DNA of 63,973 nt, filler included, from an uncultured bacterium (GTDB lineage: Bacteria > Hinthialibacterota > Hinthialibacteria > Hinthialibacterales > Hinthialibacteraceae), in assembly GCA_964449065.1 (NCBI GenBank). It is 4 parts of 4 records of this genome, joined end to end, with 100 filler letters (N's around TTAATTAATTAA, not from the genome) between each part and the next. Parts side by side here need not be neighbours in the genome. Positions count along the whole stretch, not along the records: positions 36,200 to 54,035 come from CAYVAZ010000070.1; 3 more parts are not named here. The stretch is one strand, 5' to 3'. Both the position numbers and the translations under genes were made by a program. The notes below the pieces were generated by a model that made no database searches, was not told where the DNA came from, and worked only from the letters and a program-made list of their open reading frames with translations. Shown here one piece after another: positions 18,138 through 54,135 of this stretch. The stretch's first letter is position 1, and each line of letters opens with the position of its first letter.

Positions 18138-18237
18138 NNNNNNNNNNNNNNNNNNNNNNNNNNNNNNNNNNNNNNNNNNNNTTAATTAATTAANNNNNNN
18201 NNNNNNNNNNNNNNNNNNNNNNNNNNNNNNNNNNNNN
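18138..18237. other. Artificial contig-joining spacer
   Basis: N44-TTAATTAATTAA-N44 (stops in all six frames). Confidence 0.97.
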
Positions 18238-26844: not shown

Positions 26845-27084
26845 ATGATTCAATCGTTCCGAAATAAAGCGGCCGAANNNNNNNNNNNNNNNNNNNNNNN
26901 NNNNNNNNNNNNNNNNNNNNNNNNNNNNNNNNNNNNNNNNNNNNNNNNNNNNNNNNNNNNNNNNNNNNNNNNNNNNNGCGGCCGAAAAGGACAATACAGC
27001 ATACGTATCAACGATCAATACCGCATTTGTTTTGAGTGGTCCAAAGAAGGGCCGGCGAATGTTGAAATCACGGATTATCACTAG
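26845..27084 (+). CDS. higB: HigB (plasmid maintenance system killer) toxin, interrupted by a 100-N scaffold gap
   Basis: MIQSFRNK... and [17 protein letters not shown]...VEITDYH. Confidence 0.85.
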
Positions 27085-36099: not shown

Positions 36100-36199
36100 N
36101 NNNNNNNNNNNNNNNNNNNNNNNNNNNNNNNNNNNNNNNNNNNTTAATTAATTAANNNNNNNNNNNNNNNNNNNNNNNNNNNNNNNNNNNNNNNNNNNN
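36100..36199. other. Artificial contig-joining spacer
   Basis: N44-TTAATTAATTAA-N44. Confidence 0.97.
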
Positions 36200-40749: not shown

Positions 40750-41478
40750 TTAGTGATTTCTTGTAATCTCAAATTCCACCCAAACCGGCTTGTGATCCGA
40801 CAACATCGGATTCAGCTCGATAAGACCACCATTGGTCACTTTAATGGTGTATTCACTTTTATACAAAATGTGGTCGATGACACCTCCTGCAGGATTGTTA
40901 TCCGCCGGCTGCTCCATCGAACGAAGGTTCTTGTAATCCAGCCCTAAATCCAGCCAGGGATTCCTCAGCCCAGCGCTTTCCAATACCGCCAGGGTTGGGC
41001 TGCCGATGCGTGTGTTAAAATCACCCGCATAGATGGATAACGCGGCGCGTTCATTCGGGATCATCTCATTCGCCATAAAGTGCACCCCGGTAACATCGGG
41101 ATCCGAAGATTTGGGGATGTGCAGCGAATAAACCGCGATATTGATGCCATTGATATTGGTCGCCACCCGAACTGTGCTGCAATGCGCTCCCCAGCGGCTG
41201 CCCTGGATGAAGAGTTCTTCTTGTTTGATAAACGGCGTCTTGCTCAAAACTACTTTGTATTTATCGACATGACCGGCGGTAGAGATATCACCGGCAAATT
41301 TATGTGGCAGGTTTAGTTCTTGCCCAACTTGCTCAAGCCATTCACCTTTAGGAGACTCACAAAGTGCAAGCAAATCGAAATCGAATGGAGACAGCGCTTC
41401 CTTAAACTGCTGCGGAGTTCCGCGTTCGCCGCGCAACACATTGTAGGAACCGATTTTAATGGTGAGTGGATCAGCCAT
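40750..41478 (-). CDS. Endonuclease/exonuclease/phosphatase (EEP) family protein
   Basis: SYNV, LCE, SLH, AGDFN, IDHI and SDH motifs; overlaps the upstream gene. Confidence 0.9.
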   Translation of the reverse strand: MADPLTIKIGSYNVLRGERGTPQQFKEALSPFDFDLLALCESPKGEWLEQVGQELNLPHKFAGDISTAGHVDKYKVVLSKTPFIKQEELFIQGSRWGAHCSTVRVATNINGINIAVYSLHIPKSSDPDVTGVHFMANEMIPNERAALSIYAGDFNTRIGSPTLAVLESAGLRNPWLDLGLDYKNLRSMEQPADNNPAGGVIDHILYKSEYTIKVTNGGLIELNPMLSDHKPVWVEFEITRNH

Positions 41479-42121
41479 ATTTTTCTAAAAACGTGCTCAT
41501 ATCCAACAAATCGTGAAAGCGTTCTTGCAACGTGTCATGATCCCAATCCCACCACGCGATTTCTTGCAGCCTTTCGGCAGTCTTATCATCAAAGCGTTTT
41601 TTGATCGGCTTGGCCGGAACACCCACCGCGATCGCATACGGAGACACGTCTTTGGTGACCACCGCACCGGAACCAATCACCGCGCCCGTACCGATCTTTA
41701 CACCCGGCATGACGATGGCCGCGTGACCCATCCACACATCATGCCCAATAATGCAGCGTTTTGATCTGCGCCAATTGAATACGGCATCGTCGTCTTTATC
41801 GTCGAAACCATACTGCTTGCGGCGGTAGGTGCAGTGATGCTGTGTCACCCGTTCCATGGGGTGGTTGCCGGGATTGATTCGTACATGCGAGGCGATCGAG
41901 CAAAACTTGCCCACATCCGAATACACAATCCACACATCACCGGCGGCATAGCTGTAATCGCCAAAAGTGGATTCCAGTACCCGGCAGTCCGCCATCAATT
42001 CCGTCCATCCGCCGATTTCGCTTTTATGAATTCGGCAGGAAGGATGGATACCCGGCTTATCGCTCAGCATTTTCGGCTCATGATTCGCGGGTGCTTCGGG
42101 AAAGGATTCGAAATAGGGCAT
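41471..42121 (-). CDS. Hexapeptide-repeat acetyltransferase of phosphonate-metabolism clusters
   Basis: GGAGGT RBS before MPYFE; GDYSY, GKFCSIA, NPGNHPM.R, IGHDVW.G, GVPAK, WWDW. Confidence 0.85.
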   Translation of the reverse strand: MPYFESFPEAPANHEPKMLSDKPGIHPSCRIHKSEIGGWTELMADCRVLESTFGDYSYAAGDVWIVYSDVGKFCSIASHVRINPGNHPMERVTQHHCTYRRKQYGFDDKDDDAVFNWRRSKRCIIGHDVWMGHAAIVMPGVKIGTGAVIGSGAVVTKDVSPYAIAVGVPAKPIKKRFDDKTAERLQEIAWWDWDHDTLQERFHDLLDMSTFLEKYG

Positions 42122-42138
42122 TGGACTAAGACCTCCAA

Positions 42139-43347
42139 TTAAACGGCTTGTGGCGCTTGAAGGAGTGGAATGGGAACATGTCCATTCAATTCCGACATTA
42201 AGCGGTCCCAATAAATCGGTACGCCATTGCGTAACGTGCAGTGATTGCGCATGCGCTCGCCTTCGCTGACCAAGGCAAGATCGGCGCTTTTGCCGACTTC
42301 AATGGAGCCGCGGTTGTGCATGCCCAACGAATCGGCGGGATTGGTCGATACTAATTTCACCGCATCGATTAACGGTAAAATACCTCGTTGTGCCATTGCA
42401 AATGATGCGTGAAGCAAAGAAGAAGGATGATAATCGGTCGCTAAAACATCCACCAACTTCTCTTGGATTGCTTCCGAAGCACTCAGGTTGCCTTCGGTGG
42501 TCGAGACGCCGCGAAACGCATTCGGCGCGCCCATCGCCACGTGGAACCCTCTGTTCTTGGCTTCCAAAGCGGCTTCTTTGGTGACCGGGAACTCGCTGAG
42601 CTTTATCCCCAAATCATCCAGCATCGCTACCTTTTCCGGAGAGTCATCATCATGCGAGGCCAACGTGACGTTGTATGCTTTCGACAGCGCGGCAATATCA
42701 TGCACCGCTTCCCAGCACTTGGGGCGGTTTTGCGCCTCTTCAATTCGCTTGCGGGCTTCTTCTTCGGTAAAATGGTCTCCCATCTGTTCTTGGTTCCATT
42801 GAATGGAAAATTGAATGTAGCGTTCGATATCGCGGTATTGTCCTTGTCCCGGGGTGTGATCCATGATCGAAATCAAATGAACTTTGTCTTGCATCAGCAG
42901 TTCTTTCAGCATCGGTACCGCTTCCGGATTGGTGATCTCAAACCGGGCGTGAACATGATGATCGGTCAATAAAGATGAGCGTGTCTCGTGAATGATGTTG
43001 ATAATCTCACAAGCCCTTTCTGCCGTTCGCAGATCGGTCTTGCGGTGCCACGCGAACGAAACGCAGGCAAACGCCGTGGTCACTCCGGATGCGGCCAGAC
43101 GCTTGTCGACCTCATGCAAGGCCAGATCAATCGGGAACATGGCTTTGGGTCTGGGAAGAATTTCCCGTTCGATCATATCCCCATGAAGATCAATCATGCC
43201 GGGGACAGCGGTTAGGCCGTTTGCGTTCACCGCGTCTTTGCCAGCAGTACCTTCAATAATTTCCGCGATTTTGCCGTCCTCGATCCGGATCGACCCTTGC
43301 TCCAAGACTTGATTGGGCAAGACAATTTTGGCATTACTCAGCCACAT
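42139..43347 (-). CDS. phnM: Alpha-D-ribose 1-methylphosphonate 5-triphosphate diphosphatase
   Basis: PGMIDLHGD..E, MDHTPGQGQY, ASHDD, EFP, MGAPN, TDYHP. Confidence 0.95.
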   Translation of the reverse strand: MWLSNAKIVLPNQVLEQGSIRIEDGKIAEIIEGTAGKDAVNANGLTAVPGMIDLHGDMIEREILPRPKAMFPIDLALHEVDKRLAASGVTTAFACVSFAWHRKTDLRTAERACEIINIIHETRSSLLTDHHVHARFEITNPEAVPMLKELLMQDKVHLISIMDHTPGQGQYRDIERYIQFSIQWNQEQMGDHFTEEEARKRIEEAQNRPKCWEAVHDIAALSKAYNVTLASHDDDSPEKVAMLDDLGIKLSEFPVTKEAALEAKNRGFHVAMGAPNAFRGVSTTEGNLSASEAIQEKLVDVLATDYHPSSLLHASFAMAQRGILPLIDAVKLVSTNPADSLGMHNRGSIEVGKSADLALVSEGERMRNHCTLRNGVPIYWDRLMSELNGHVPIPLLQAPQAV

Positions 43348-44062
43348 GTTCCATTTCCTTTAATGATTTCGCTGCTGCCGCATCAACCGGTTCCAGTACA
43401 ATCTCCGCGTCAACCAAACCCGCCACGTCTTCGGGGTGGTGCAGAATGCTCAACATGGTTACCCCGTTGTCTTTCAATTCTTTCAACCGTTCGGCTAAGG
43501 CGCCGCGGGCATGTTTATCAAGCGAAGCCGTCGGTTCATCCAATAACAGCAATCGGGCAGGGTGAATCAACGCGCGCGCCAGGTTAACCTTCTGCTGCTC
43601 GCCTCCCGAAAAGGTGGTGGGATACGCGGTTTTCAGTTCCGGCTTAAAGCCAAAGCGGTCCAGCAGGATGGATGCGTCGGACAAAGCCTGATCCAATGTT
43701 TTTCCAAACGCGAGCAGCGGTTCCGCCACCAATTCCAGCGCGGTGACACGCGGCCGGGGGCGCAAAAATTGTGTGACGAATCCCAACTCTTGATTGCGCA
43801 AAAACGCGATATCGATATCGGATGCGGTCGCGAGATTGATCACACCGTGATTGGAGTGATACAGCGCTTCGCCGCTGCTCGGCAAATAACTGCGGTACAA
43901 GCAGCGCAGCAGGGTTGATTTTCCCACCCCGTTCGGACCGCTGATAAGTTTGAATTCGCTTTGGTCGAGCGTGAACGATATATCCTCAAACACCGGCAGC
44001 GTTTGGCTCAGGTGGTGAATGGTGAAGATTTTGGTGAAATTGCGGACCTCTAATATGGTCAT
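43334..44062 (-). CDS. phnL: C-P lyase ABC-ATPase subunit PhnL
   Basis: K.FT.H, GPNGVGKST, V.QFLR..PR, PTTFSGGEQQ.VN.AR, LLDEPTASLD. Confidence 0.93.
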   Translation of the reverse strand: MTILEVRNFTKIFTIHHLSQTLPVFEDISFTLDQSEFKLISGPNGVGKSTLLRCLYRSYLPSSGEALYHSNHGVINLATASDIDIAFLRNQELGFVTQFLRPRPRVTALELVAEPLLAFGKTLDQALSDASILLDRFGFKPELKTAYPTTFSGGEQQKVNLARALIHPARLLLLDEPTASLDKHARGALAERLKELKDNGVTMLSILHHPEDVAGLVDAEIVLEPVDAAAAKSLKEMEHVAE

Positions 44063-44799
44063 ACTGTCCCCACCTCTTCGATTCGGCGCGCGCCATGCCG
44101 GATTAATTCGGCGATCTCATTGGGCATGCCGGACTCGATAATGGCATCCATCGCTTCCTCTATCTCATAATCGATACGGTGAAAAGAGGTTTCTAAAGTA
44201 TCGGTATCGAACATCGCGAAGGACGCCCGTGGGTCTTGATCCAACGAACGGCCAACCGGTCCTGGATTGATGAACAGTACATCGTTGCATGTGTATGTAA
44301 AGATTTGATGAGTATGACCCAATACCACTATATTTGCCGATACCTTTTTGCTTGCTTCGTACAGCGATTCGGGTGCGGATGGAGAGAGCCAATCATCCAA
44401 ATAATCGAATCCGGCGTGGACAGTTTGAATGCGCGTTCCTGCAATATCAAAAACGGATGTCCATGGCAGCTGCGATAAAAAATGCTGGCAATCTTTTTCA
44501 ATGATAGTCTTCGTCCAATCCAAAGCGGCCTGTTTGAATGGCTCATTTCGCGGGCTGGATGGTTCACGGGACGCTTTGGGCAGATCCCATCCCACGGCAG
44601 CGTCGTAGTTGCCTGTGACGCATGAAATGTTCTTGCATTGAACCGCCCGCACCACTTCATTGGGATTGGCACCATAACACACCAAATCCCCTGCGCAAAG
44701 AATGTGTTCTACGCGTTCTGCTTCCAGGGCGCCCATCACGGCATCCAAGGCTTGAATATTGCCGTGTATATCTGAGATGAAACCGATTTTCATATTCAC
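44059..44799 (-). CDS. Calcineurin-like metallophosphoesterase
   Basis: SDIHGN, GDLV.YG, GNYD, GHTH and NPG motifs; ATGA-coupled to phnL. Confidence 0.9.
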   Translation of the reverse strand: MNMKIGFISDIHGNIQALDAVMGALEAERVEHILCAGDLVCYGANPNEVVRAVQCKNISCVTGNYDAAVGWDLPKASREPSSPRNEPFKQAALDWTKTIIEKDCQHFLSQLPWTSVFDIAGTRIQTVHAGFDYLDDWLSPSAPESLYEASKKVSANIVVLGHTHQIFTYTCNDVLFINPGPVGRSLDQDPRASFAMFDTDTLETSFHRIDYEIEEAMDAIIESGMPNEIAELIRHGARRIEEVGTV

Positions 44800-44805
44800 A
44801 TTCCC

Positions 44806-45627
44806 TTACAATTTGGCGTGGACAAGCTGCTGCGTATAGGCTTCTTGCGGGTCTTCTAGAATCTGATCCGCCAATCCTTCTTCCACCACTTCACCGTAAC
44901 GCATGACCATTACCCGGTCGGATAAAGTACGAATCACACCCAGATCATGGGAAACCAAAATCATGGTGACTTTGGTTTCCCGCTGCAATCGTTTTAAAGT
45001 ATCCAGCACTTTGGCTTGAACGGATACATCCAATCCGCTGGTGGGTTCATCCAACAAGAGCAGCCGCGGTTCCAACGCGATGGCTTTCGCTAGCTGCACA
45101 CGCTGCTGCATCCCACCCGATAAATGCGATGGGATATCATCCATCCGGTCAATCGGGAATTCGGAAGCATCTAACGATACCCGGGCTTTTTCCCGCAAGA
45201 CGGCATACCGGCGCTCTCCGCTGATTAACAACCGCACCGCAACATTGCCGCTGCTGGTGTTGTTCATCCGCAAGCCCAAATGCGGGTGTTGATACACAAT
45301 CCCGATATGCTTGACCTGAATCTCGCGTTTGGCATAGCGGTCGAGAGTGAAAAGATTCACGCCATCGTAGCCTTCGAGGTTGAGATGATATACACCGGAA
45401 TCCGGCTGCTCCTGCAAATTGAGAACACGCAGCAGAGTCGATTTGCCGGAACCGGATTCGCCCACGATTCCCAAAATCTCACCGGGATATACGGTGACAT
45501 CAACATTGTTGACCGCCACAATTCCACCATAGGCCTGCATGACATGGCGGGCGGTTAAAATCGGTTGGGTGGTGACCAGCCGGGGTTCATCCAGTACGAT
45601 GTGGTTACTCTTTAAAGTATCCTGCAT
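44806..45627 (-). CDS. phnK: C-P lyase ABC-ATPase subunit PhnK
   Basis: GIVGESGSGKST, VYQHP..GL, SGGMQQRVQ, DEPTSGLDVSVQA, LEDPQEAYTQ.LV; likely start MQDTL. Confidence 0.93.
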   Translation of the reverse strand: MQDTLKSNHIVLDEPRLVTTQPILTARHVMQAYGGIVAVNNVDVTVYPGEILGIVGESGSGKSTLLRVLNLQEQPDSGVYHLNLEGYDGVNLFTLDRYAKREIQVKHIGIVYQHPHLGLRMNNTSSGNVAVRLLISGERRYAVLREKARVSLDASEFPIDRMDDIPSHLSGGMQQRVQLAKAIALEPRLLLLDEPTSGLDVSVQAKVLDTLKRLQRETKVTMILVSHDLGVIRTLSDRVMVMRYGEVVEEGLADQILEDPQEAYTQQLVHAKL

Positions 45628-46549
45628 GATAAAAATTGCCTTCGTTGTCGTAATAAACTTTCCCCGCTTCTTCGGGATTGTCCGGATGAAACTTCTCGGC
45701 ATAACCGGTATCGGAAAGTTCGTATTCGGTCAACCCGTTCTCCAACGGAATCTCATTCATAAATTTATGCCGCAGTCCGGTGTGTTTGCAGGTCCACTCG
45801 CCCTGGTTTTCCACTTTAAAAAACACATCGTCAAACTCCAGCGGATACACATTGGTATACGGCGGCACGGCATACAAACGCTTTTCACGTCCGGCTGAGA
45901 GAATGGTCAAATGCTTGGCTTGATGCAGTTTGGGGGTATCCCAGCGCGGTATGGGGCTGGGGCTCATCACGTAACGGCCATGCACCATCACCGGATAACT
46001 CGCACCCTGTACAAAATCGCCAAAGCGGACGAGTTGCTCATACAACTTCAGCCACATGAGACCATAATCTTTATCGGCGTGAAGAATGCGCGCTTTGTAC
46101 ATATTGAATTCAACCGTACGCAGCGGTTCCGGGTCGGGAACTTGCAGCACCAGGATTTGATGGCCATCCATAATCTCTTCGGGAATGCGGTGGCGGCTTT
46201 GTATGATGGTCGCTTTCAACGCGTCGGTTGTGGTGTTTGCCCCGGTCATCCGTGAAATGAAACGCCGCAGATTGGCCGCGTTTACCGAGTCATCCGCGCC
46301 CTGGTCAATCACTTTGATGATGTCATCCGGCCCGGTGATGCTGAGCGTGGCCTGCAAGCCCCCCGTCCCCCATCCACGCGCGATGGGCAGTTCACGGCTG
46401 GCATACGGCACTTGATAGCCTGGGATAGCTACCGCCTTCAGCATCCGCCGGCGCAGTTCGCGCTTGGCGAATTCATCCAAAAACGCGTACGAATAATCCT
46501 TCGCGGGCGAGGCCAACTGTTGGAGGGTCTTCTTTGATTCAGTCGTCAT
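45605..46549 (-). CDS. phnJ: PhnJ homologue (C-P lyase catalytic subunit) lacking the conserved Cys cluster
   Basis: KAVAIPGYQVP, GWGTGG, KVIDQGADD..NA, QSRHRIPE, PSPIP..D, GREKR.YAVPPYT, SDT.Y; only one Cys in the protein. Confidence 0.95.
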   Translation of the reverse strand: MTTESKKTLQQLASPAKDYSYAFLDEFAKRELRRRMLKAVAIPGYQVPYASRELPIARGWGTGGLQATLSITGPDDIIKVIDQGADDSVNAANLRRFISRMTGANTTTDALKATIIQSRHRIPEEIMDGHQILVLQVPDPEPLRTVEFNMYKARILHADKDYGLMWLKLYEQLVRFGDFVQGASYPVMVHGRYVMSPSPIPRWDTPKLHQAKHLTILSAGREKRLYAVPPYTNVYPLEFDDVFFKVENQGEWTCKHTGLRHKFMNEIPLENGLTEYELSDTGYAEKFHPDNPEEAGKVYYDNEGNFYHAGYFKE

Positions 46550-47694
46550 TTCTTCGCTCCAGCAGGTGCAGTGCTTTTTTGCGGTTTTCGCATCGTGTTT
46601 TTGCCGTTCGATGAAGGTTCACGAAGCCAGCCCTGCGCGATCATCATCTTGCGCAGCGAATCCAACTGGCTGCTGAAGGTGACGTAATGCGGCAGCTTAA
46701 AGTGAATGCAGAATCCGGACGATTCAACCGGCTCGGTGTGATACAGCACATAATCTTCCGTGTGCGAGGGATGCGGATTGGGTTGGCTCATGGCGCGGTC
46801 CAACATGGAACCGGCGATGTTCTTCACTTCATTCCAGCCCAGGGTCGCCGCAAAGCCGGTATCGAGTTGCGCTTTGTCCTTGCCGTCTTCTTGTTTGACG
46901 GTGGTGTTGGATACAATCTCACATTGGCTGGTGCGGATTTTGCCGATGGGAAACACCGTTCCCGTGATGGGGTGTTTGATTTGGACATCAGAGTACGCCA
47001 GCCGCAGTTCATTTACCGTTGGATGAATCCCTCCATAACCGCGCATGTTTGCGTATCCCAGGGCGAGTATGCCCCCCGTCTCGGCTCGCGCTAACGCCTG
47101 CAAACGGTGTTCACGCGGTGCAGGGAAGAGCAATGGCCCGCGGGTCAGGTCCGGAATTTTTCCGGGTGCAACGTTTTCGGGATCATCGACCTCAGACAGC
47201 AATCCTTGCGCCCGCTGCCAATCGGCAACCAGCGGGTAGGTTTTTGGCGGGATTTTTTCCGCTTCTTTCGGCGGCTCGGTGCTGTCCGGCAGGCCGTCCA
47301 ATACTTCGGTTTTCAAAAGCCGGTGACTGTAATCAAGTGACGGACCCAATATCTGCCCGCCGGGGATATCTTTAAACGAAGCCGATATCCGGCGTACGGT
47401 GTTCATGTTTTCAATCGTGATCGGCTCGGCATAGGCAATACGCGGTTGGGTACTGCGGAAAGCACGCAAGAGTAAAACCGCTTCAAACAACTCGCCCCCG
47501 GTTTGTGCGATGGCAAGCGCGGCCAATTGCGGCGCATAAACGGATGCCTCTCCCATCACCCGGTCCACCAAATAGGTGAGGTTTTTCTCTATTATATCCA
47601 CCTGCTCTTTGGTGAGTTTGCCTTTGAGATGATGATACAACTTTTCCGCTTCTTGAATCGCTTCTTCGCCCCCACGGGCGGCAACGTATGCCAC
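46546..47694 (-). CDS. phnI: C-P lyase subunit PhnI
   Basis: AAGGAG RBS before GTG; YVA.RGGE.AI, LLRAFRST, RRISA.FKDIPGGQILG, HFKLPHYV.F. Confidence 0.95.
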   Translation of the reverse strand: MAYVAARGGEEAIQEAEKLYHHLKGKLTKEQVDIIEKNLTYLVDRVMGEASVYAPQLAALAIAQTGGELFEAVLLLRAFRSTQPRIAYAEPITIENMNTVRRISASFKDIPGGQILGPSLDYSHRLLKTEVLDGLPDSTEPPKEAEKIPPKTYPLVADWQRAQGLLSEVDDPENVAPGKIPDLTRGPLLFPAPREHRLQALARAETGGILALGYANMRGYGGIHPTVNELRLAYSDVQIKHPITGTVFPIGKIRTSQCEIVSNTTVKQEDGKDKAQLDTGFAATLGWNEVKNIAGSMLDRAMSQPNPHPSHTEDYVLYHTEPVESSGFCIHFKLPHYVTFSSQLDSLRKMMIAQGWLREPSSNGKNTMRKPQKSTAPAGAKK

Positions 47695-47705: not shown

Positions 47706-48269
47706 TTAATTTAAATGTTGATCGACATGCGTGGTGCGCGGAATGCCGACGACCTTCCCGCCGTCCACAAATAGGACATCCCATCCGATGGGATACTGCA
47801 TCGCCTTCTCACGGACACGCCAAAATTCGTTCGGTATCTTATCCAACCGGATGGTTTGCATGGTTTCGATCCCAGGGCCGGTAAATGTATACTCCGGGCC
47901 GGCGCCGATCACCGCGTTCATTATGATCGTCGCCGAGCGGTCCGGGTAAATCATGGTGCCGCGGTTGGCTTTTTCAACCAGTTCGATATCGTGTGATCCC
48001 ATATTGGGTAAGAACACATACTCCGCTTCTTCTATGCGTTCTCTTCTAGCGGTGGTTCGGGTACAAAAATCCGCGATTTCAATGTCTTCGGTGAAAAAAC
48101 TGGATTCCAAATCCAATACCGTTTCTGCAATCGCAAAAAAGTTATCCGGAAATTTGCTGCTGTGTTCCGGCAGTTGATACACAATACCCGGACGGCTGAA
48201 CGCCCATATCAACGCTTTAAATGTGTTTCTCGATCTAGCTTCCGCTTCGGTGTGTACTGGAGTGTTCAT
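47706..48269 (-). CDS. phnH: C-P lyase subunit PhnH
   Basis: SRPG, GT..YPD.SAT, GPGI, YP.G.D, GIPRT. Confidence 0.93.
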   Translation of the reverse strand: MNTPVHTEAEARSRNTFKALIWAFSRPGIVYQLPEHSSKFPDNFFAIAETVLDLESSFFTEDIEIADFCTRTTARRERIEEAEYVFLPNMGSHDIELVEKANRGTMIYPDRSATIIMNAVIGAGPEYTFTGPGIETMQTIRLDKIPNEFWRVREKAMQYPIGWDVLFVDGGKVVGIPRTTHVDQHLN

Positions 48270-48703
48270 CAGAAGGTCTCCATTTCTACGCGGGTGGATT
48301 CGACTTGCATCATCAGCGTTTCTTCTTGGGATTTTTGCAACGCTGCTTGATGACTTACAAATTCCAAAATCTCTTCTTTAAGTACCCCCCCTTGCATGGC
48401 AGCATCCAATACAGCAACTCCAACAGCCTGCTCCAAATCTCTACCCAAACATGCGGCATAGCCTTCGCTTTCGTTTACTTTTACGCGGGCTTCAGCCACC
48501 AACACCTCACCCAAATGAAACGTGGTTTTCTTTACACTCTCTTTATAGGGCAACATGATCAAGCCGGTACGGTTTTGCAGCACCTCTATAGTTTCCAACC
48601 GCGGCAACAACGTTTCCACAAACGCTTTCAACGCTTCCGCTGGAGTGCTGCACAATACGCTGAGATATTCTTCTTGCTGTTCTAGCGGCATTTCTTGTTC
48701 CAT
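48269..48703 (-). CDS. phnG: C-P lyase subunit PhnG
   Basis: GLIM, FHLGEVLV.EA.V, A..DA, TRV..F; start ATG 48703 or 48691. Confidence 0.9.
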   Translation of the reverse strand: MEQEMPLEQQEEYLSVLCSTPAEALKAFVETLLPRLETIEVLQNRTGLIMLPYKESVKKTTFHLGEVLVAEARVKVNESEGYAACLGRDLEQAVGVAVLDAAMQGGVLKEEILEFVSHQAALQKSQEETLMMQVESTRVEMETF

Positions 48704-48781
48704 TTCTTTCAACTGAGCGGTGTGCGTTATTCTGACCCGACGCTTGCCCAAACGAGACAGATTACTGTAGATTGAGTCAAC

Positions 48782-49801
48782 CTACTCCATCTCTTGCAAT
48801 TCCAAATCCAGCAGTGTCCCCACTTCCCGAACAGGGTTATAGCACTGATCCACGTTTTCGTAACCCATTTCCGCCGACGGATCGACATACCAACGGCAGG
48901 TTTTGGCAACAACCTCCGGCTGATTTTGTATGTCCAGCAAGGCATCCCGAATCTTATCTTTGAAGGATTGCGGCAGCTCCTTGCGCACAGCAAAGGGTGT
49001 GCTGGGGATTGGGTCGGACTGCGCAATCATCACCAATTCCCCCTCTGGTGCCGCCTCATATAACGCGTCCAGTTCTTCTTGAGTTCGTTTTACACGGGTT
49101 TTTCCGTCGGGATATCCGGTAAAGTCAATCATATTTTCCGCTTTTAAGCGGTACAGGTTATCTTCCAACGTTGCGCACGCGTCCACTTTCCCGTTCGCGA
49201 CCGCCATCACGGCCGAAGCGTGATTCCCCGCGAAAATCCAATCCAAATCTTCATCGGGGTGGATACCGTTTTTTATCATGACCGCTTTGGGGAAAAGATG
49301 TCCCGATGCAGAAGCGGGATCAACAAACGCAAAGCTCTTGCCTTTTAAATCAGCAAGGGTCCGAATCCCAGACCCCTTCTTTGTGACGATCATGCTGAAA
49401 TATTGCGGTTTCCGTTCCGGATCATACTCACAAGGAGTGTTGGGTATATACACTCCCATCGCCAAAGCCTCTGCGTTGGCTTCCTGCACGCCAAGTACAT
49501 ACGCGAACGGCCCAAGCGCAAAGCCATGAATCCGTTTGGCGCGCAACGCCTCAATTACAGCCGAATAACTGGTTGCGGTATATTCTTTCACCGGAATGCC
49601 CAACCGCTCTTGTAAATAGTCCTTCATCGACTCTCGTTGCACCGAGACTTCATCCAAATCGTTCCCCGCAAAGTAGCCAAGCCGTAATTCTGCGGGTTCG
49701 CCATTGGCCTCCAACTCATATTCATTGCCGGAACATCCCCATACGAGAAAAACCGCACAAATTGATAGCACAATTGGTAGACTCTTTTTATCTAGCATCA
49801 A
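48782..49801 (-). CDS. phnD: Phosphonate ABC transporter substrate-binding lipoprotein
   Basis: Lipobox VWGC; Y..VIEAL, GPFAYV, F.DPASASGHLFP, G.H. Confidence 0.9.
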   Translation of the reverse strand: MMLDKKSLPIVLSICAVFLVWGCSGNEYELEANGEPAELRLGYFAGNDLDEVSVQRESMKDYLQERLGIPVKEYTATSYSAVIEALRAKRIHGFALGPFAYVLGVQEANAEALAMGVYIPNTPCEYDPERKPQYFSMIVTKKGSGIRTLADLKGKSFAFVDPASASGHLFPKAVMIKNGIHPDEDLDWIFAGNHASAVMAVANGKVDACATLEDNLYRLKAENMIDFTGYPDGKTRVKRTQEELDALYEAAPEGELVMIAQSDPIPSTPFAVRKELPQSFKDKIRDALLDIQNQPEVVAKTCRWYVDPSAEMGYENVDQCYNPVREVGTLLDLELQEME

Positions 49802-50697
49802 ATAATCTTCTTTCTCAGGTAATCACTAAACCGGTCAAGAATGGTGACAGAGATAACCAGTATGATGATTGCACCCAAAAGCTTTTGGTATTGAAACAGG
49901 CCGTAGTATTTATTCAGCAGTAAGCCGACGCCACCCGCGCCTACGATCCCCAAAATCGTGGCCGAACGAACATTGGCCTCAAAGTAGTAAAGTGAGTACG
50001 AAGCCATCAAGGGCAGCGCTTGTGGAATGACCGCGTAAAGAAAGGTCGTAATGCTTCCTGCCCCTGTCGCTTTAATGGCCAATACCTGCTGCGGATCAAT
50101 CGACTCAATCGATTCGGCAAAGATTTTCCCTAACGAACCCACCGAACCGATTGCCAATGCCATCACACCCGCAAACGGCCCCAACCCGACCGCGCTGACA
50201 AACAGCAATCCAAAAATAATATCGGGTATGGCGCGGTTGGCGTTCAGCAAAAAACGGATGGAGTGATAGATGGAGGAGTGAGGCGTGGTATTGCGGGCGG
50301 CAAGCAAGGCAAACGGCAACGCCAGGATCACACCCAAGGTGGTTCCGATAACCGCCATTTGCACGGTTTCGATTATCGACAGTAATACTTCCGGCACTGG
50401 CAAGACGACGGATTCAAAACCAACCGCCGGTATGGTAACCGCAAAAAGCGGCAGTGAAAACGCGGGGATTTGCAATGGAATCCACAACAGATCAAACACA
50501 GGCGGAAACATCCGGTACAAAAACATCGCAATGTCTGGAATGCCTCCGGCTAAATCGGCCGGACTCGCCTCCGTCCCATACAACGACCAAAGAAAAAGCA
50601 CGGCAATCGCAATACTCCAGCCGATGGGTTTGATGCTGAACGGTTTCTCCGGCAAGGAATATTCCCCAGACGGGTTGGGTGTATGTGTAGTCGTCAT
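49798..50697 (-). CDS. phnE: Phosphonate ABC transporter permease
   Basis: R.IPD, G.GPFAG..A, LGK.FAE.IE, E.NVRSATILG.VGAGG.G; likely start MTTTH. Confidence 0.92.
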   Translation of the reverse strand: MTTTHTPNPSGEYSLPEKPFSIKPIGWSIAIAVLFLWSLYGTEASPADLAGGIPDIAMFLYRMFPPVFDLLWIPLQIPAFSLPLFAVTIPAVGFESVVLPVPEVLLSIIETVQMAVIGTTLGVILALPFALLAARNTTPHSSIYHSIRFLLNANRAIPDIIFGLLFVSAVGLGPFAGVMALAIGSVGSLGKIFAESIESIDPQQVLAIKATGAGSITTFLYAVIPQALPLMASYSLYYFEANVRSATILGIVGAGGVGLLLNKYYGLFQYQKLLGAIIILVISVTILDRFSDYLRKKII

Positions 50698-50707
50698 CGG
50701 GTTGGCG

Positions 50708-51535
50708 TTAGGATACAACGGCGATAGGTTCTTCATGATGACCTGTGTAACCGGCTTCTGCACCGGGTTTCTTTCCGTGATTTTTTTCGTTTTTGTAAAT
50801 CGCGTTCATGGCCGATTGGGTTAATTCTTCCGGCTTTCCGTCAAAAACTACCGTGCCGTTTGCGATGCCGATAATGCGGTCCGCAATCGCCTTGGCAAAT
50901 TCCACATGATGTAAATTAATCAAAGTCAGCACATTGTCTTCGCGCGCAAGTTGCTCCAAATCACGAATTACGATCCAGGCCAATTCCGGATCCAGGCAGC
51001 AAACCGGTTCGTCCGCCAGCAGAAGCTTGGGCTGCTGGCTTAAAGCCCTTGCGATTGCGACCCGCTGTTTTTCGCCGCCGGACAATTCATCCGCCCGGTG
51101 ATAAGCACGGTGCAGCAAATGGACACGTTCCAGATTGTATAAGGCGATGTCGCGGTCTACAGAAGAAAAGAAACCGGTCGCGCTTGCGTAAAACGAACTG
51201 AATCCCAAACGCCCGGCCAGCACATTCTTCAGCGCGGACATGCGTTCGACTAGATTGTGTTCCTGCCAAATAAAACCAATGCGTTTGCGCAATTGGCGCA
51301 AATGATATTCTGACAATTCGCGAATGTTTTGCCCTTCAAAGAGAATGGAACCTTCTTGAAAATGCTGCAATCCATTGATGCAGCGCAATAGTGTCGATTT
51401 GCCTGAACCCGAACGTCCGATAATCGCAATGATTTCGCCCGGCCCGGTATCGAAACGGATGGATTCGACTGCGACAGTTCCATTGGGATATATTACTTTT
51501 AGATTGTTGACTTGTAACACAGGTGTAGATTTCAT
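50708..51535 (-). CDS. phnC: Phosphonate ABC transporter ATP-binding protein
   Basis: GRSGSGKSTLLRCINGL, NVL.GR, LSGGEKQRVAIARAL, LADEP, INLH. Confidence 0.92.
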   Translation of the reverse strand: MKSTPVLQVNNLKVIYPNGTVAVESIRFDTGPGEIIAIIGRSGSGKSTLLRCINGLQHFQEGSILFEGQNIRELSEYHLRQLRKRIGFIWQEHNLVERMSALKNVLAGRLGFSSFYASATGFFSSVDRDIALYNLERVHLLHRAYHRADELSGGEKQRVAIARALSQQPKLLLADEPVCCLDPELAWIVIRDLEQLAREDNVLTLINLHHVEFAKAIADRIIGIANGTVVFDGKPEELTQSAMNAIYKNEKNHGKKPGAEAGYTGHHEEPIAVVS

Positions 51536-52203: not shown

Positions 52204-53520
52204 TTACGCAGGCTGTTCTTCCACTTCCAGCACAGGTTCCTCTGATTTCTGCAAGAAGTACATCAAGGCCATCCCTTGCAGCACGGTCGCAACCACGGCC
52301 AATACGTATGTAAAGCCTATCAAAAAGCGCTTCCAATCGACCTCGGCAACGGCAACCAAATTTTGATACATTTGAATACTAACCGAGCCGGTATATCCAA
52401 ACGCATCCGCCATATAAATGGCAAACACAGCGGTCCCCACAAAATGCGTGGAAGCAATTGTGCGATCAAATAAAATCGAACCGTAAGGCACATAAGCCAG
52501 ATACGCACCAAAGCCGATCAGAATCATCCACCAAATTCCGTCAATATAGTCGGCCTGAAACAGAAGTGTGCTTATTCCCATAAGCATGGTGCCAAATACC
52601 ATAATCCCGTATAACGCGATTAATCCTCTGCGGTTGTCATGTATACAGGAAAGTGCCGAATACACCACCATAATGCCAAATGCGATGGGAAGTTCGGTTC
52701 GGGTAAAAATGGCGGGAGTCTCTCCGTATCCCAAAGTAGTAAACACTTCAATCCCGTATACATCCCGAATATCCCGGTAAGCAGTGATAAAGAAATAAGC
52801 CACCAACAGCATTACAATGCCCGGCAAATAAGTTATAAAAAATTTCCAACGTTGTTGAGCGTCCATCGGTTGGCGTTTGACCCGCTCGTCTTCATCAATT
52901 TCGGTGGGATTGGGGGTTTGATTCAACAACCAAACCGAGAGGAAAAAGAGAGGAAGAAAAACCAACCCCGTCATAAACGGCATCCAAAATTCGGTGACAT
53001 TGTATGAACTCATCAACCAGCGTCCAACATCTTTCACAACACCGCTGGATACGATATAAGAACAACTCAAACCGGCCAGCAGAATTTCCGATAGGGTTCT
53101 GCCTTCTAAATACAAGACCGCGATTCCCCAGACCATCCCCAACGGAAGACCGGTGAAAAAGATGGCGAATATTTTAAAGTTTGTGGGCAAAACGGCAAAC
53201 AAGAACAACGCGGCTTCCGCAATGAGAATGAGAAGAACTAGAGTGAACGCCCGTTGATTCCGTTTAATTTCAGAACAAACCTTAATGCCGATATACTTCG
53301 AGAGGGTATACCCAATAATTTGGCTGATGACCAACACGGTCTTGTAATCGAACGGGCCGATCATGCCAATATCCGTATATTCCGCGGCCGTAAACGGTTT
53401 GCGGAACGCGTACATACAAAAATAAGTCGTAAACGCGCAAGTCATCACATAAAAACTGAAGACCGAAGCGGAAGAACGATCCAGCCAGCATGTAATTGGG
53501 CTTTGTTTGGTTTCGCTCAT
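52204..53520 (-). CDS. DUF5690 family MFS-like membrane protein
   Basis: YFCMYAFRKPF, GY.LSK..GIK, GLPLGMVWG..YLEGR, D.FGY.GS; ~12 TMs. Confidence 0.8.
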   Translation of the reverse strand: MSETKQSPITCWLDRSSASVFSFYVMTCAFTTYFCMYAFRKPFTAAEYTDIGMIGPFDYKTVLVISQIIGYTLSKYIGIKVCSEIKRNQRAFTLVLLILIAEAALFLFAVLPTNFKIFAIFFTGLPLGMVWGIAVLYLEGRTLSEILLAGLSCSYIVSSGVVKDVGRWLMSSYNVTEFWMPFMTGLVFLPLFFLSVWLLNQTPNPTEIDEDERVKRQPMDAQQRWKFFITYLPGIVMLLVAYFFITAYRDIRDVYGIEVFTTLGYGETPAIFTRTELPIAFGIMVVYSALSCIHDNRRGLIALYGIMVFGTMLMGISTLLFQADYIDGIWWMILIGFGAYLAYVPYGSILFDRTIASTHFVGTAVFAIYMADAFGYTGSVSIQMYQNLVAVAEVDWKRFLIGFTYVLAVVATVLQGMALMYFLQKSEEPVLEVEEQPA

Positions 53521-54035: not shown

Positions 54036-54135
54036 NNNNNNNNNNNNNNNNNNNNNNNNNNNNNNNNNNNNNNNNNNNNTTAATTAATTAANNNNNNNNN
54101 NNNNNNNNNNNNNNNNNNNNNNNNNNNNNNNNNNN
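54036..54135. other. Artificial contig-joining spacer
   Basis: N44-TTAATTAATTAA-N44. Confidence 0.97.

Follow-up and report, generated by a model that had tools for sequence, protein, structure and literature searches.

A phosphonate operon whose PhnJ lacks the radical-SAM cysteines belongs to a widespread and selected lineage of C-P lyase

A 63,973-nucleotide stretch of DNA (hereafter the window), joined from contigs of a metagenome-assembled genome (MAG) of an uncultured Hinthialibacteraceae bacterium (GCA_964449065.1), carries a carbon-phosphorus (C-P) lyase operon whose phnJ gene has lost three of the four cysteines named in the accepted reaction mechanism. We found that this loss is real, widespread and selected, and that the operon represents a distinct, old lineage of C-P lyase operons. 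An earlier note on this DNA had suggested that the operon may represent a distinct class; this class proved to be under selection and far larger than one gene and, by phylogeny, has at least two origins. C-P lyase is the main bacterial route to phosphorus from unactivated phosphonates. It is also the accepted source of the methane that methylphosphonate yields in oxygenated waters, and surveys of methane and phosphonate use count phnJ as their marker gene; the mechanism of the enzyme is still unsettled. As given in passages of two sources, the accepted mechanism combines a [4Fe-4S] cluster on Cys241, Cys244 and Cys266 of Escherichia coli PhnJ with S-adenosylmethionine (SAM), Gly32 and Cys272 (bioRxiv 10.1101/2024.07.22.604536; PMC9947105). 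We put at roughly 60% the probability that the operons described here encode a working C-P lyase that would do without the PhnJ-bound cluster or the Cys272 thiyl and be started some other way.

The phnJ gene (positions 45605..46549, minus strand) is an open reading frame (ORF) of 314 residues running from ATG to stop. Its product matched the Pfam PhnJ profile PF06007 (E = 9.5e-122; 405.7 bits against a cut-off of 25) over residues 18-286, corresponding to profile positions 2-271 of 275, and phmmer aligned residues 18-285 with residues 6-273 of E. coli PhnJ (chain 4xb6_D; E = 3.5e-87; about 50% identical). In this alignment the window reads wtCkhTg...yeLsdtgyA where E. coli reads ePCaiCg...fvCsdtdyC, and therefore Cys254 (TGC, 45788..45790), Thr257 (ACC, 45779..45781), Leu278 (CTT, 45716..45718) and Ala284 (GCC, 45698..45700), all on the minus strand, correspond to Cys241, Cys244, Cys266 and Cys272. 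Of the three cluster ligands just the Cys241 equivalent is left, as the sole Cys of the protein, and an Ala stands where the E. coli model places the thiyl. The Gly32 radical site is retained as Gly44 in AIPGYQ (46418..46420, minus), and the translation contains both the His108 motif QSRHRIPE and a C-terminal tail, YYDNEGNFYHAGYF, whose motif YYDNEGNFY (residues 299-307; 45629..45655, minus) lies within an extension at residues 290-314. On all of these points (the three missing cysteines, the surviving Cys241 equivalent, the conserved Gly32 and His108 motifs and the extra Tyr-rich tail) the earlier note had read the sequence correctly.

Each of the ACC, CTT and GCC codons is two base changes away from a Cys codon (TGY), and Logan contigs of two runs (X1 and X2, microbial-mat metagenomes from two samples of one study, perhaps the MAG's own source) span all four codons with no differences. 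Together with the shared substitutions and the purifying selection described below, these data show that the cysteine loss is neither error nor decay, and the earlier judgment that sequencing error was unlikely holds. An AlphaFold2 (AF2) model of the protein had a predicted local distance difference test (pLDDT) score of 85.8, with 82-94 in the blocks covering residues 241-310, which include the C-terminal domain and the tail, and 80-92 at the tail motif. Foldseek superposed this model on 7z18_D, 7z19_D and 4xb6_D with template-modelling (TM) scores of 0.90-0.91 and root-mean-square deviations of 1.7-2.3 over 264-273 columns, the best-covered match being 7z19_D (TMt 0.91; 273 columns of 276 residues). 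Because the model superposes on E. coli PhnJ, the small C-terminal domain is predicted to keep its fold without the cysteines, and the best explanation is that in this lineage the domain gave up its four-cysteine metal site and adopted a fold that needs no metal. Zinc-ribbon proteins offer a possible analogy: Cys4 members such as ribosomal proteins and the adenylate kinase lid have metal-free ('C-minus') versions, in which the cysteines were repeatedly lost with the fold kept. Unlike those structural sites, however, the site in PhnJ is held to be catalytic (a [4Fe-4S] cluster and a thiyl).

The substitutions are shared by all close relatives of the window's protein. Among the best 120 of 7998 homologues (70-100% identical, query included), all 120 had the Cys-poor pattern, with Cys (115), Ser (3) or Asp (2) in the Cys241 column, Thr (110) or Ser (10) in the Cys244 column, Leu (100), Ile (10), Val (9) or Met (1) in the Cys266 column, and Ala (78), Met (19), Leu (14), Gly (6), Val (2) or Gln (1) in the Cys272 column; 99 of these proteins had one Cys in all and four had none. 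Members of the branch come from Chloroflexota (Caldilineaceae, Anaerolineae, Thermoflexales, Litorilinea, Oscillochloris and Roseiflexaceae), Deinococcota (Deinococcus oregonensis and a Deinococcales MAG) and Verrucomicrobiota. Searches with tblastn added the PhnJ of Thermus thermophilus HB8 plasmid pVV8 (NC_017767.1, WP_014677597.1; pattern C,T,V,M at the four columns; one Cys) and those encoded on plasmids of the alphaproteobacteria Haematobacter and Mesorhizobium (C,S,L,G). Hot-spring Synechococcus/Thermostichus PhnJ, 83% identical to the Thermus protein, reads C,S,I,M and has one extra Cys, five residues past the first. The Thermus and Synechococcus proteins fall in the same clade as the window's (support 98; 63-65% identical to it), but unlike it they lack the Tyr-rich tail and have Met at the position of E. 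coli Met42. A representative library at 50% identity returned 805 matches, mostly fragments, and an ESM Atlas search added little.

Cys-poor and canonical forms coexist within Chloroflexota: of 401 species genomes sampled, 29 had phnJ, and the 28 readable loci comprised 18 canonical genes, 8 Cys-poor genes (the search centre included) and 2 odd variants. Partial states were also seen in two Chloroflexota PhnJ (L096, L101), one with CxC replacing CxxC and the other without the second Cys only.

Selection on the branch is strongly purifying. Across 17 coding sequences (136 pairs), the median proportions of nonsynonymous (pN) and synonymous (pS) differences were 0.185 and 0.685, and the ratio of nonsynonymous to synonymous rates (dN/dS) was 0.06-0.14 between the window's phnJ and the seven loci with finite dS. 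Constraint extends to the C-terminal domain (pN/pS 0.33) as well as to the tail (0.37). PF06007 matched once in the window's genome and once per genome in five other carriers (5/5), leaving no second phnJ in any of the six; the canonical second copy elsewhere in the genome that the earlier note had suggested looking for did not turn up.

A second group of Cys-poor sequences emerged among more distant loci, two of which (Salinicoccus kekensis DSM 23173 and a Flexilinea MAG) are also without these three cysteines. With the Salinicoccus PhnJ as query, the best 120 matches comprised 37 Cys-poor sequences (nearly all with one Cys, and with patterns such as C,S,T,M), which belong to Salinicoccus, Jeotgalicoccus, Macrococcus/Macrococcoides and Vaginisenegalia, and 83 canonical sequences from Bacillus, Cytobacillus, Neobacillus and their relatives. 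Within the order of S. kekensis, 23 of 151 species genomes had phnJ, always as a single copy (23/23), and all 22 complete genes were Cys-poor. This lineage is also under purifying selection, with pN of 0.127 and pS of 0.80 over 11 coding sequences (55 pairs) and dN/dS of about 0.06 for the 17 pairs whose dS is finite. Like the window's protein, PhnJ of the Salinicoccus/Jeotgalicoccus/Macrococcus group (e.g. S. kekensis DSM 23173, L022) lost the same three cysteines, kept the same one as its only Cys and is the sole phnJ. In contrast to it, this group has Ser, Thr and Met as replacements and no tail, its PhnK carries a CxxC-x12-CxxC motif, and its origin lies in the Firmicutes-type canonical clade. 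Two Bacilli phnJ matches, L069 (G239) and L074 (G248), have an in-frame stop (TAA, TAG) and may be pseudogenes.

The phylogeny indicates that the cysteines were lost at least twice, independently. The two Cys-poor groups formed separate clades with Shimodaira-Hasegawa-like approximate likelihood-ratio (SH-aLRT) support of 99/99, or 95/95 after the C-terminal columns were removed, and the second group was nested among canonical Firmicutes-type sequences, also without those columns. Forcing the two groups together changed the log-likelihood (lnL) by -53.6 and was rejected by the approximately unbiased (AU) test (p = 0.00056), in which the groups were named after a first tree had been viewed. A wider tree needed four state changes, and well-supported branches force three of these. 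Included in that wider tree were a Bacilli genome with a partial state (L079, G258; pattern C,T,C,M) and the Chloroflexota variant in which the second Cys alone is missing.

We compared what the two lineages retain. His108, Arg, Asp82, His157 and Asp280 did not vary in any of the 262 Cys-poor or 83 canonical sequences, and the Gly32 column held Gly in 260 of the 262 and in all 83. Two Synechococcus proteins (Synechococcus sp. H55.2 / H60.1), P0486 (on 11 contigs) and P0491, have Ala at Gly32 (AIPAYQ) in a Cys-poor background. The His pair of PhnI (E. coli His328 and His333), which lies at the metal site between PhnI and PhnJ and which the earlier note had also listed as retained, reads HFKLPHY in the window and HLKLPHY in E. 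coli, and H.K.PHY was found in 43/43 PhnI sequences. Between 12 Cys-poor and 10 canonical Firmicutes-type operons, genes and gene order were identical, with 0-5 fixed residue differences per protein. Of the columns conserved in 107 canonical PhnJ, drawn from two broad groups, just the three cysteines are lost in both Cys-poor lineages, with no co-varying residue. Gene content is likewise unchanged in the related operons, with no gained gene, and no conserved cysteine triad was found in any operon subunit examined; in Thermus HB8, for example, PhnG, H, I, J, K, L and M contain 0, 0, 0, 1, 1, 1 and 0 cysteines (three in total).

Several candidate replacements for the cluster were considered. The surviving Cys as a new thiyl is weakened by its column, which among the 262 Cys-poor sequences holds Cys in 251, Ser in 6 and Asp in 5 (Ser or Asp in 11/262), with Asp in 4 of 17 genome loci; eight of the 262 proteins have no Cys whatever. 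The Tyr-rich tail (the earlier note had listed a Tyr-based radical among its options) carries the motif Y[YF]DxxGxFY in 188 of the 262 Cys-poor sequences and in none of the 83 canonical ones. The motif is missing from the other 74, including all 37 of the second lineage and the Thermus/Synechococcus branch, and therefore it is not a general substitute. For the same reason, the clade that the note had suggested testing for, sharing cysteine loss and tail under purifying selection, exists with respect to loss and selection, but the tail does not run throughout. Cys359 of PhnI (in GFCIH, two residues before the His pair) was rejected as a general answer for a new ligand: it is present in 17 of 18 PhnI sequences of the window's clade, but also in the canonical operon L023, and is missing from Thermus and from the second lineage. 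An N-terminal CxxC-x12-CxxC in PhnK, tried as a moved cluster site, occurs in 9/9 canonical as well as 12/12 Cys-poor Firmicutes-type operons and is therefore not specific. Finally, Met54Leu (E. coli Met42) as a convergent change failed the wider column test, with Met kept in 39 of the 262 Cys-poor sequences. The PhnK motif is an observation in its own right, being present in 21/21 Firmicutes-type PhnK examined and in the intermediate L079 (L020, L021, L022, L024, L051-L060, L075-L082) and missing from the window's clade; it is possibly a metal site on the ABC subunit.

The reading we prefer, a C-P step without PhnJ-bound [4Fe-4S]/SAM chemistry or a Cys272 thiyl, is drawn from the missing cysteines, the lack of any triad elsewhere, the kept fold and motifs, the purifying selection and the sole copy. 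If the pathway follows the E. coli scheme, PhnCDE would bring the phosphonate in, PhnI with PhnG, PhnH and PhnL would couple it to the ribose triphosphate of ATP, and PhnM would take off pyrophosphate. PhnJ, in a cavity shared with PhnI, would then cleave the C-P bond, releasing an alkane and leaving a ribose cyclic phosphate, which a YfcE-type phosphodiesterase may then open. As to the start of the reaction, we tentatively favor, at somewhat less than even odds, a radical that still forms on Gly32, set off by a donor that would be neither operon-encoded nor a known glycyl-radical activase. A metal-centered route at the PhnI-PhnJ site is the runner-up and seems unlikely. The broader proposal, that the Cys-less lineages (Thermus thermophilus HB8, Macrococcus/Salinicoccus, many Chloroflexota and hot-spring Synechococcus) would run the same alkane-releasing reaction with a novel initiator, is doubtful as a whole.

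A number of points weigh against this reading. Kamat and Raushel are said to have found in 2011/2013 that E. coli PhnJ requires the cluster, SAM, Gly32 and Cys272 in vitro, and Seweryn in 2015 is reportedly a further source for the accepted mechanism. Because the E. coli work in vitro needs all four, we know of no precedent for a cysteine-free C-P lyase route, and our literature search turned up no direct assay of a Cys-poor operon. The Gly32 radical in particular is weakened by the two natural Synechococcus variants with Ala (P0486, P0491), and the eight of 262 PhnJ without any Cys leave no place for a thiyl relay within PhnJ itself. PhnK, PhnL and PhnG scored below their NCBIfam equivalog cut-offs, with PhnH and PhnM above, and the whole complex has therefore diverged. 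Most carrier genomes are MAGs, in which an unlinked partner or another phnJ copy may have been overlooked. The host assignment of the operon, in a MAG that is 87% complete, is unsure.

One member of the window's branch provides a lead on function. The Cys-poor Synechococcus PhnJ P0484 (ABD01166.1; pattern C,S,I,M) comes from a strain that is probably Synechococcus JA-2-3B'a(2-13) (OS-B'). Release of methane or ethane by OS-B' was reportedly described by Gomez-Garcia in 2011. In passages of two later papers, JA-2-3B'a(2-13) is described as having a full phn cluster and growing on phosphonates as sole phosphorus source (PMC5955973, citing Adams 2008), and OS-B' as having a C-P lyase operon and using phosphonates in the dark (PMC9600594, citing Gomez-Garcia 2011). 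Because the connection depends on a probable strain identity and on secondary passages, and the genome might hold a second phnJ, it too limits the preferred reading and is no more than a lead.

The published structural work bears on the question of how essential the cluster is. Passages of Amstrup et al. (2023) place the putative cluster site about 30 Å from Gly32, occupied by Zn in the structures and static on ATP turnover, and call for anaerobic work (PMC9947105). A preprint distinguishes two major PhnJ clades and reports all four cysteines in both proteins inspected (bioRxiv 10.1101/2024.07.22.604536). Our search of the literature, which left subscription journals and supplementary files outside its scope, found no paper noting a PhnJ without the cysteines. 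The present analysis contributes an independent second origin, members of the branch in Thermus and Synechococcus, the finding that no residue co-varies with the loss, and a negative search for activases.

Of the rival explanations, the most durable is a radical installed in trans, in which an unlinked radical-SAM or other enzyme would make the Gly32 radical once and the catalytic cycle would regenerate it; we regard this as unlikely. It fits the retention of Gly32 in 260/262 Cys-poor sequences and the E. coli model, in which the glycyl radical is regenerated every turnover, and generic radical-SAM genes with weak matches occur in each carrier genome (e.g. G000:C206, 69.4 bits to PflA). However, matches above cut-off to PFLE_PFLC (TIGR02494), PflA (TIGR02493) or NrdG (TIGR02491) were found in none of the five carrier genomes (0/5) or the window's own (0/1), which are mostly incomplete, and two genomes (G043, G044) had no PflA or NrdG match at E<=0.001. 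The operons examined contain no activase gene and have gained no gene, so the in-trans activase put forward in the earlier note finds no counterpart among the known kinds. Moreover, known glycyl-radical enzymes need a Cys thiyl beside the glycine, a need at odds with the 8/262 PhnJ that have no Cys and the 11/262 in which the surviving Cys is Ser or Asp.

Less likely still is a repurposed complex, in which PhnJ would serve as a scaffold or act on another substrate and unactivated C-P bonds would no longer be cleaved. The loss of the cluster ligands and Cys272, which are central to the E. coli chemistry besides Gly32, is what this would predict, and the low equivalog scores of PhnK, L and G and the extra hydrolase genes in the window's operon (YfcE-type and endonuclease/exonuclease/phosphatase (EEP)-family) are consistent with it. 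In a mere scaffold, however, constraint on Gly32, on His108 and on the PhnI His pair would be expected to loosen, and none of them is relaxed; in addition, the PhnCDE importer, a PhnM above its equivalog cut-off and all other PhnJ columns conserved in canonical sequences are kept. The second lineage differs from its canonical relatives in nearly nothing besides the cysteines, and a Synechococcus with the Cys-poor form is reported, if the strain link is right, to grow on phosphonates (in a passage of PMC5955973). Decay of the gene, or a sequencing or assembly error, has practically no chance of being the explanation: the MAG does have 515 contigs and low depth (3.5-8 in Logan contigs), but the same substitutions in 120/120 of the closest homologues (best 120 of 7998), the two base changes behind each, the agreement of contigs from two samples, the dN/dS of 0.06-0.14 and an intact frame with coupled neighbors all stand against it.

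These sequences form a large natural set under strong selection, with the Cys-poor gene as the sole copy in cultured, harmless organisms, and provide a direct experimental handle; the set includes Thermus thermophilus, a thermophile whose proteins crystallise well. How C-P lyase chemistry starts thereby becomes directly testable in cultured organisms: either a new way of starting the radical exists or the cluster is dispensable. If the Cys-less lineages run the same reaction, the textbook radical-SAM/Cys272 mechanism would apply to some lineages only or would describe the physiological reaction incompletely, and an iron-sulfur-free C-P lyase might tolerate oxygen. Surveys and primers aimed at the four-cysteine region, for which a primer pair has been published (PMC12413358), miss or misread part of the PhnJ family.

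Compared with the E. coli enzyme (EC 4.7.1.1; Phn(GHIJ)2K/L; PDB 4XB6, 7Z15-7Z19), the window's PhnJ shares the fold, including the C-terminal domain, as well as Gly32, the His108 motif, the PhnI His pair and the phnG/H/I/K/L/M partners. It differs in having Thr, Leu and Ala at Cys244, Cys266 and Cys272, with one Cys in all, and a C-terminal extension of 29 residues with the conserved Y[YF]DxxGxFY, and in being accompanied by a PhnK and a PhnL below their equivalog cut-offs.

The operon lies entirely on the minus strand, in the order phnC-E-D-G-H-I-J-K, a YfcE-family phosphodiesterase gene, phnL, phnM, a hexapeptide transferase gene and an EEP-family gene. The earlier note was right that the seven genes phnG to phnM are all intact; it needs correcting in that the YfcE-family gene splits phnK from phnL, and the starts of phnK and phnI are probably later than the first start codons. 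The phosphonate ABC importer (48782..51535) consists of phnD (48782-49801), phnE (49798-50763) and phnC (50708-51535), identified by profile matches. Next come phnG (48269..48751; PF06754; TIGR03293 85.4 bits, slightly below the cut-off of 89) and phnH (47706..48269; PF05845; TIGR03292 115.8 bits against a cut-off of 91.5). The phnI gene (46546..47694; PF05861; 7z15_C, E = 6.2e-64; His pair in GFCIHFKLPHY) has an ORF extending to 47784, and its likely start is the GTG at 47694, behind AAGGAG. The phnK-type ABC ATPase gene, whose product has no Cys, occupies 44806..45627 (ABC_tran; TIGR02323 216 bits, below the cut-off of 302.85, the match starting at ORF residue 46); its ORF extends to 45702, with a likely start at the ATG at 45627. 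An apparent 98-base overlap of phnJ and phnK and a Cys-bearing N-terminus of the PhnI ORF are thus probably artefacts of choosing the first start codon.

Between phnK and phnL, profile matches identified the YfcE-family (Metallophos_2) phosphodiesterase gene (44059..44799), which occupies the same position in 5 of 17 related loci (L003, L004, L014, L016, L018). No phnP or phnN was found in the window's operon, and the phosphodiesterase may stand in for PhnP by opening the ribose cyclic phosphate. Then follow the phnL-type ABC ATPase gene (43334..44062; TIGR02324 212 bits, below the cut-off of 256.3), phnM, encoding the RPnTP diphosphatase (42139..43347; NF011988 414.6 bits against 369; TIGR02318 402.4 bits against 390.55), and the phosphonate-operon hexapeptide transferase gene (41471..42211; TIGR03308 282.7 bits against 201.65), which comes after phnM in most related loci. 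The operon ends with the EEP-family gene (40750..41478; PF03372).

A radical-SAM domain was found neither in the 14 proteins of the operon, in agreement with the earlier note, nor in the six further ORFs of the 17.8-kb contig (36200-54035). Runs of N join the MAG contigs in the window at 18138-18237, 26878-26977, 36100-36199 and 54036-54135. The GC content is 0.484 for the operon contig and 0.513 for the operon itself, against 0.44-0.455 for the other contigs of the window, and phnJ was found in none of 40 relatives of the window's genome. Thus, the operon was either transferred in or lies on a mis-binned contig.

Minor features of the operons were also seen. The EEP-family gene overlaps the end of the hexapeptide transferase gene by 8 bases and was not seen in related loci. 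PhnJ and PhnK are fused in one open frame in L071/L083 (G285) and in P0497 (Thermus thermophilus, 545 residues), and an opposite-strand ORF of about 190 residues lies between phnI and phnJ in two related loci (L012, 8532-9995; L017, 357-1104). Directly upstream of phnC, on the same (minus) strand, is a gene for a DUF5690 protein (453 bits; 52204-53520).

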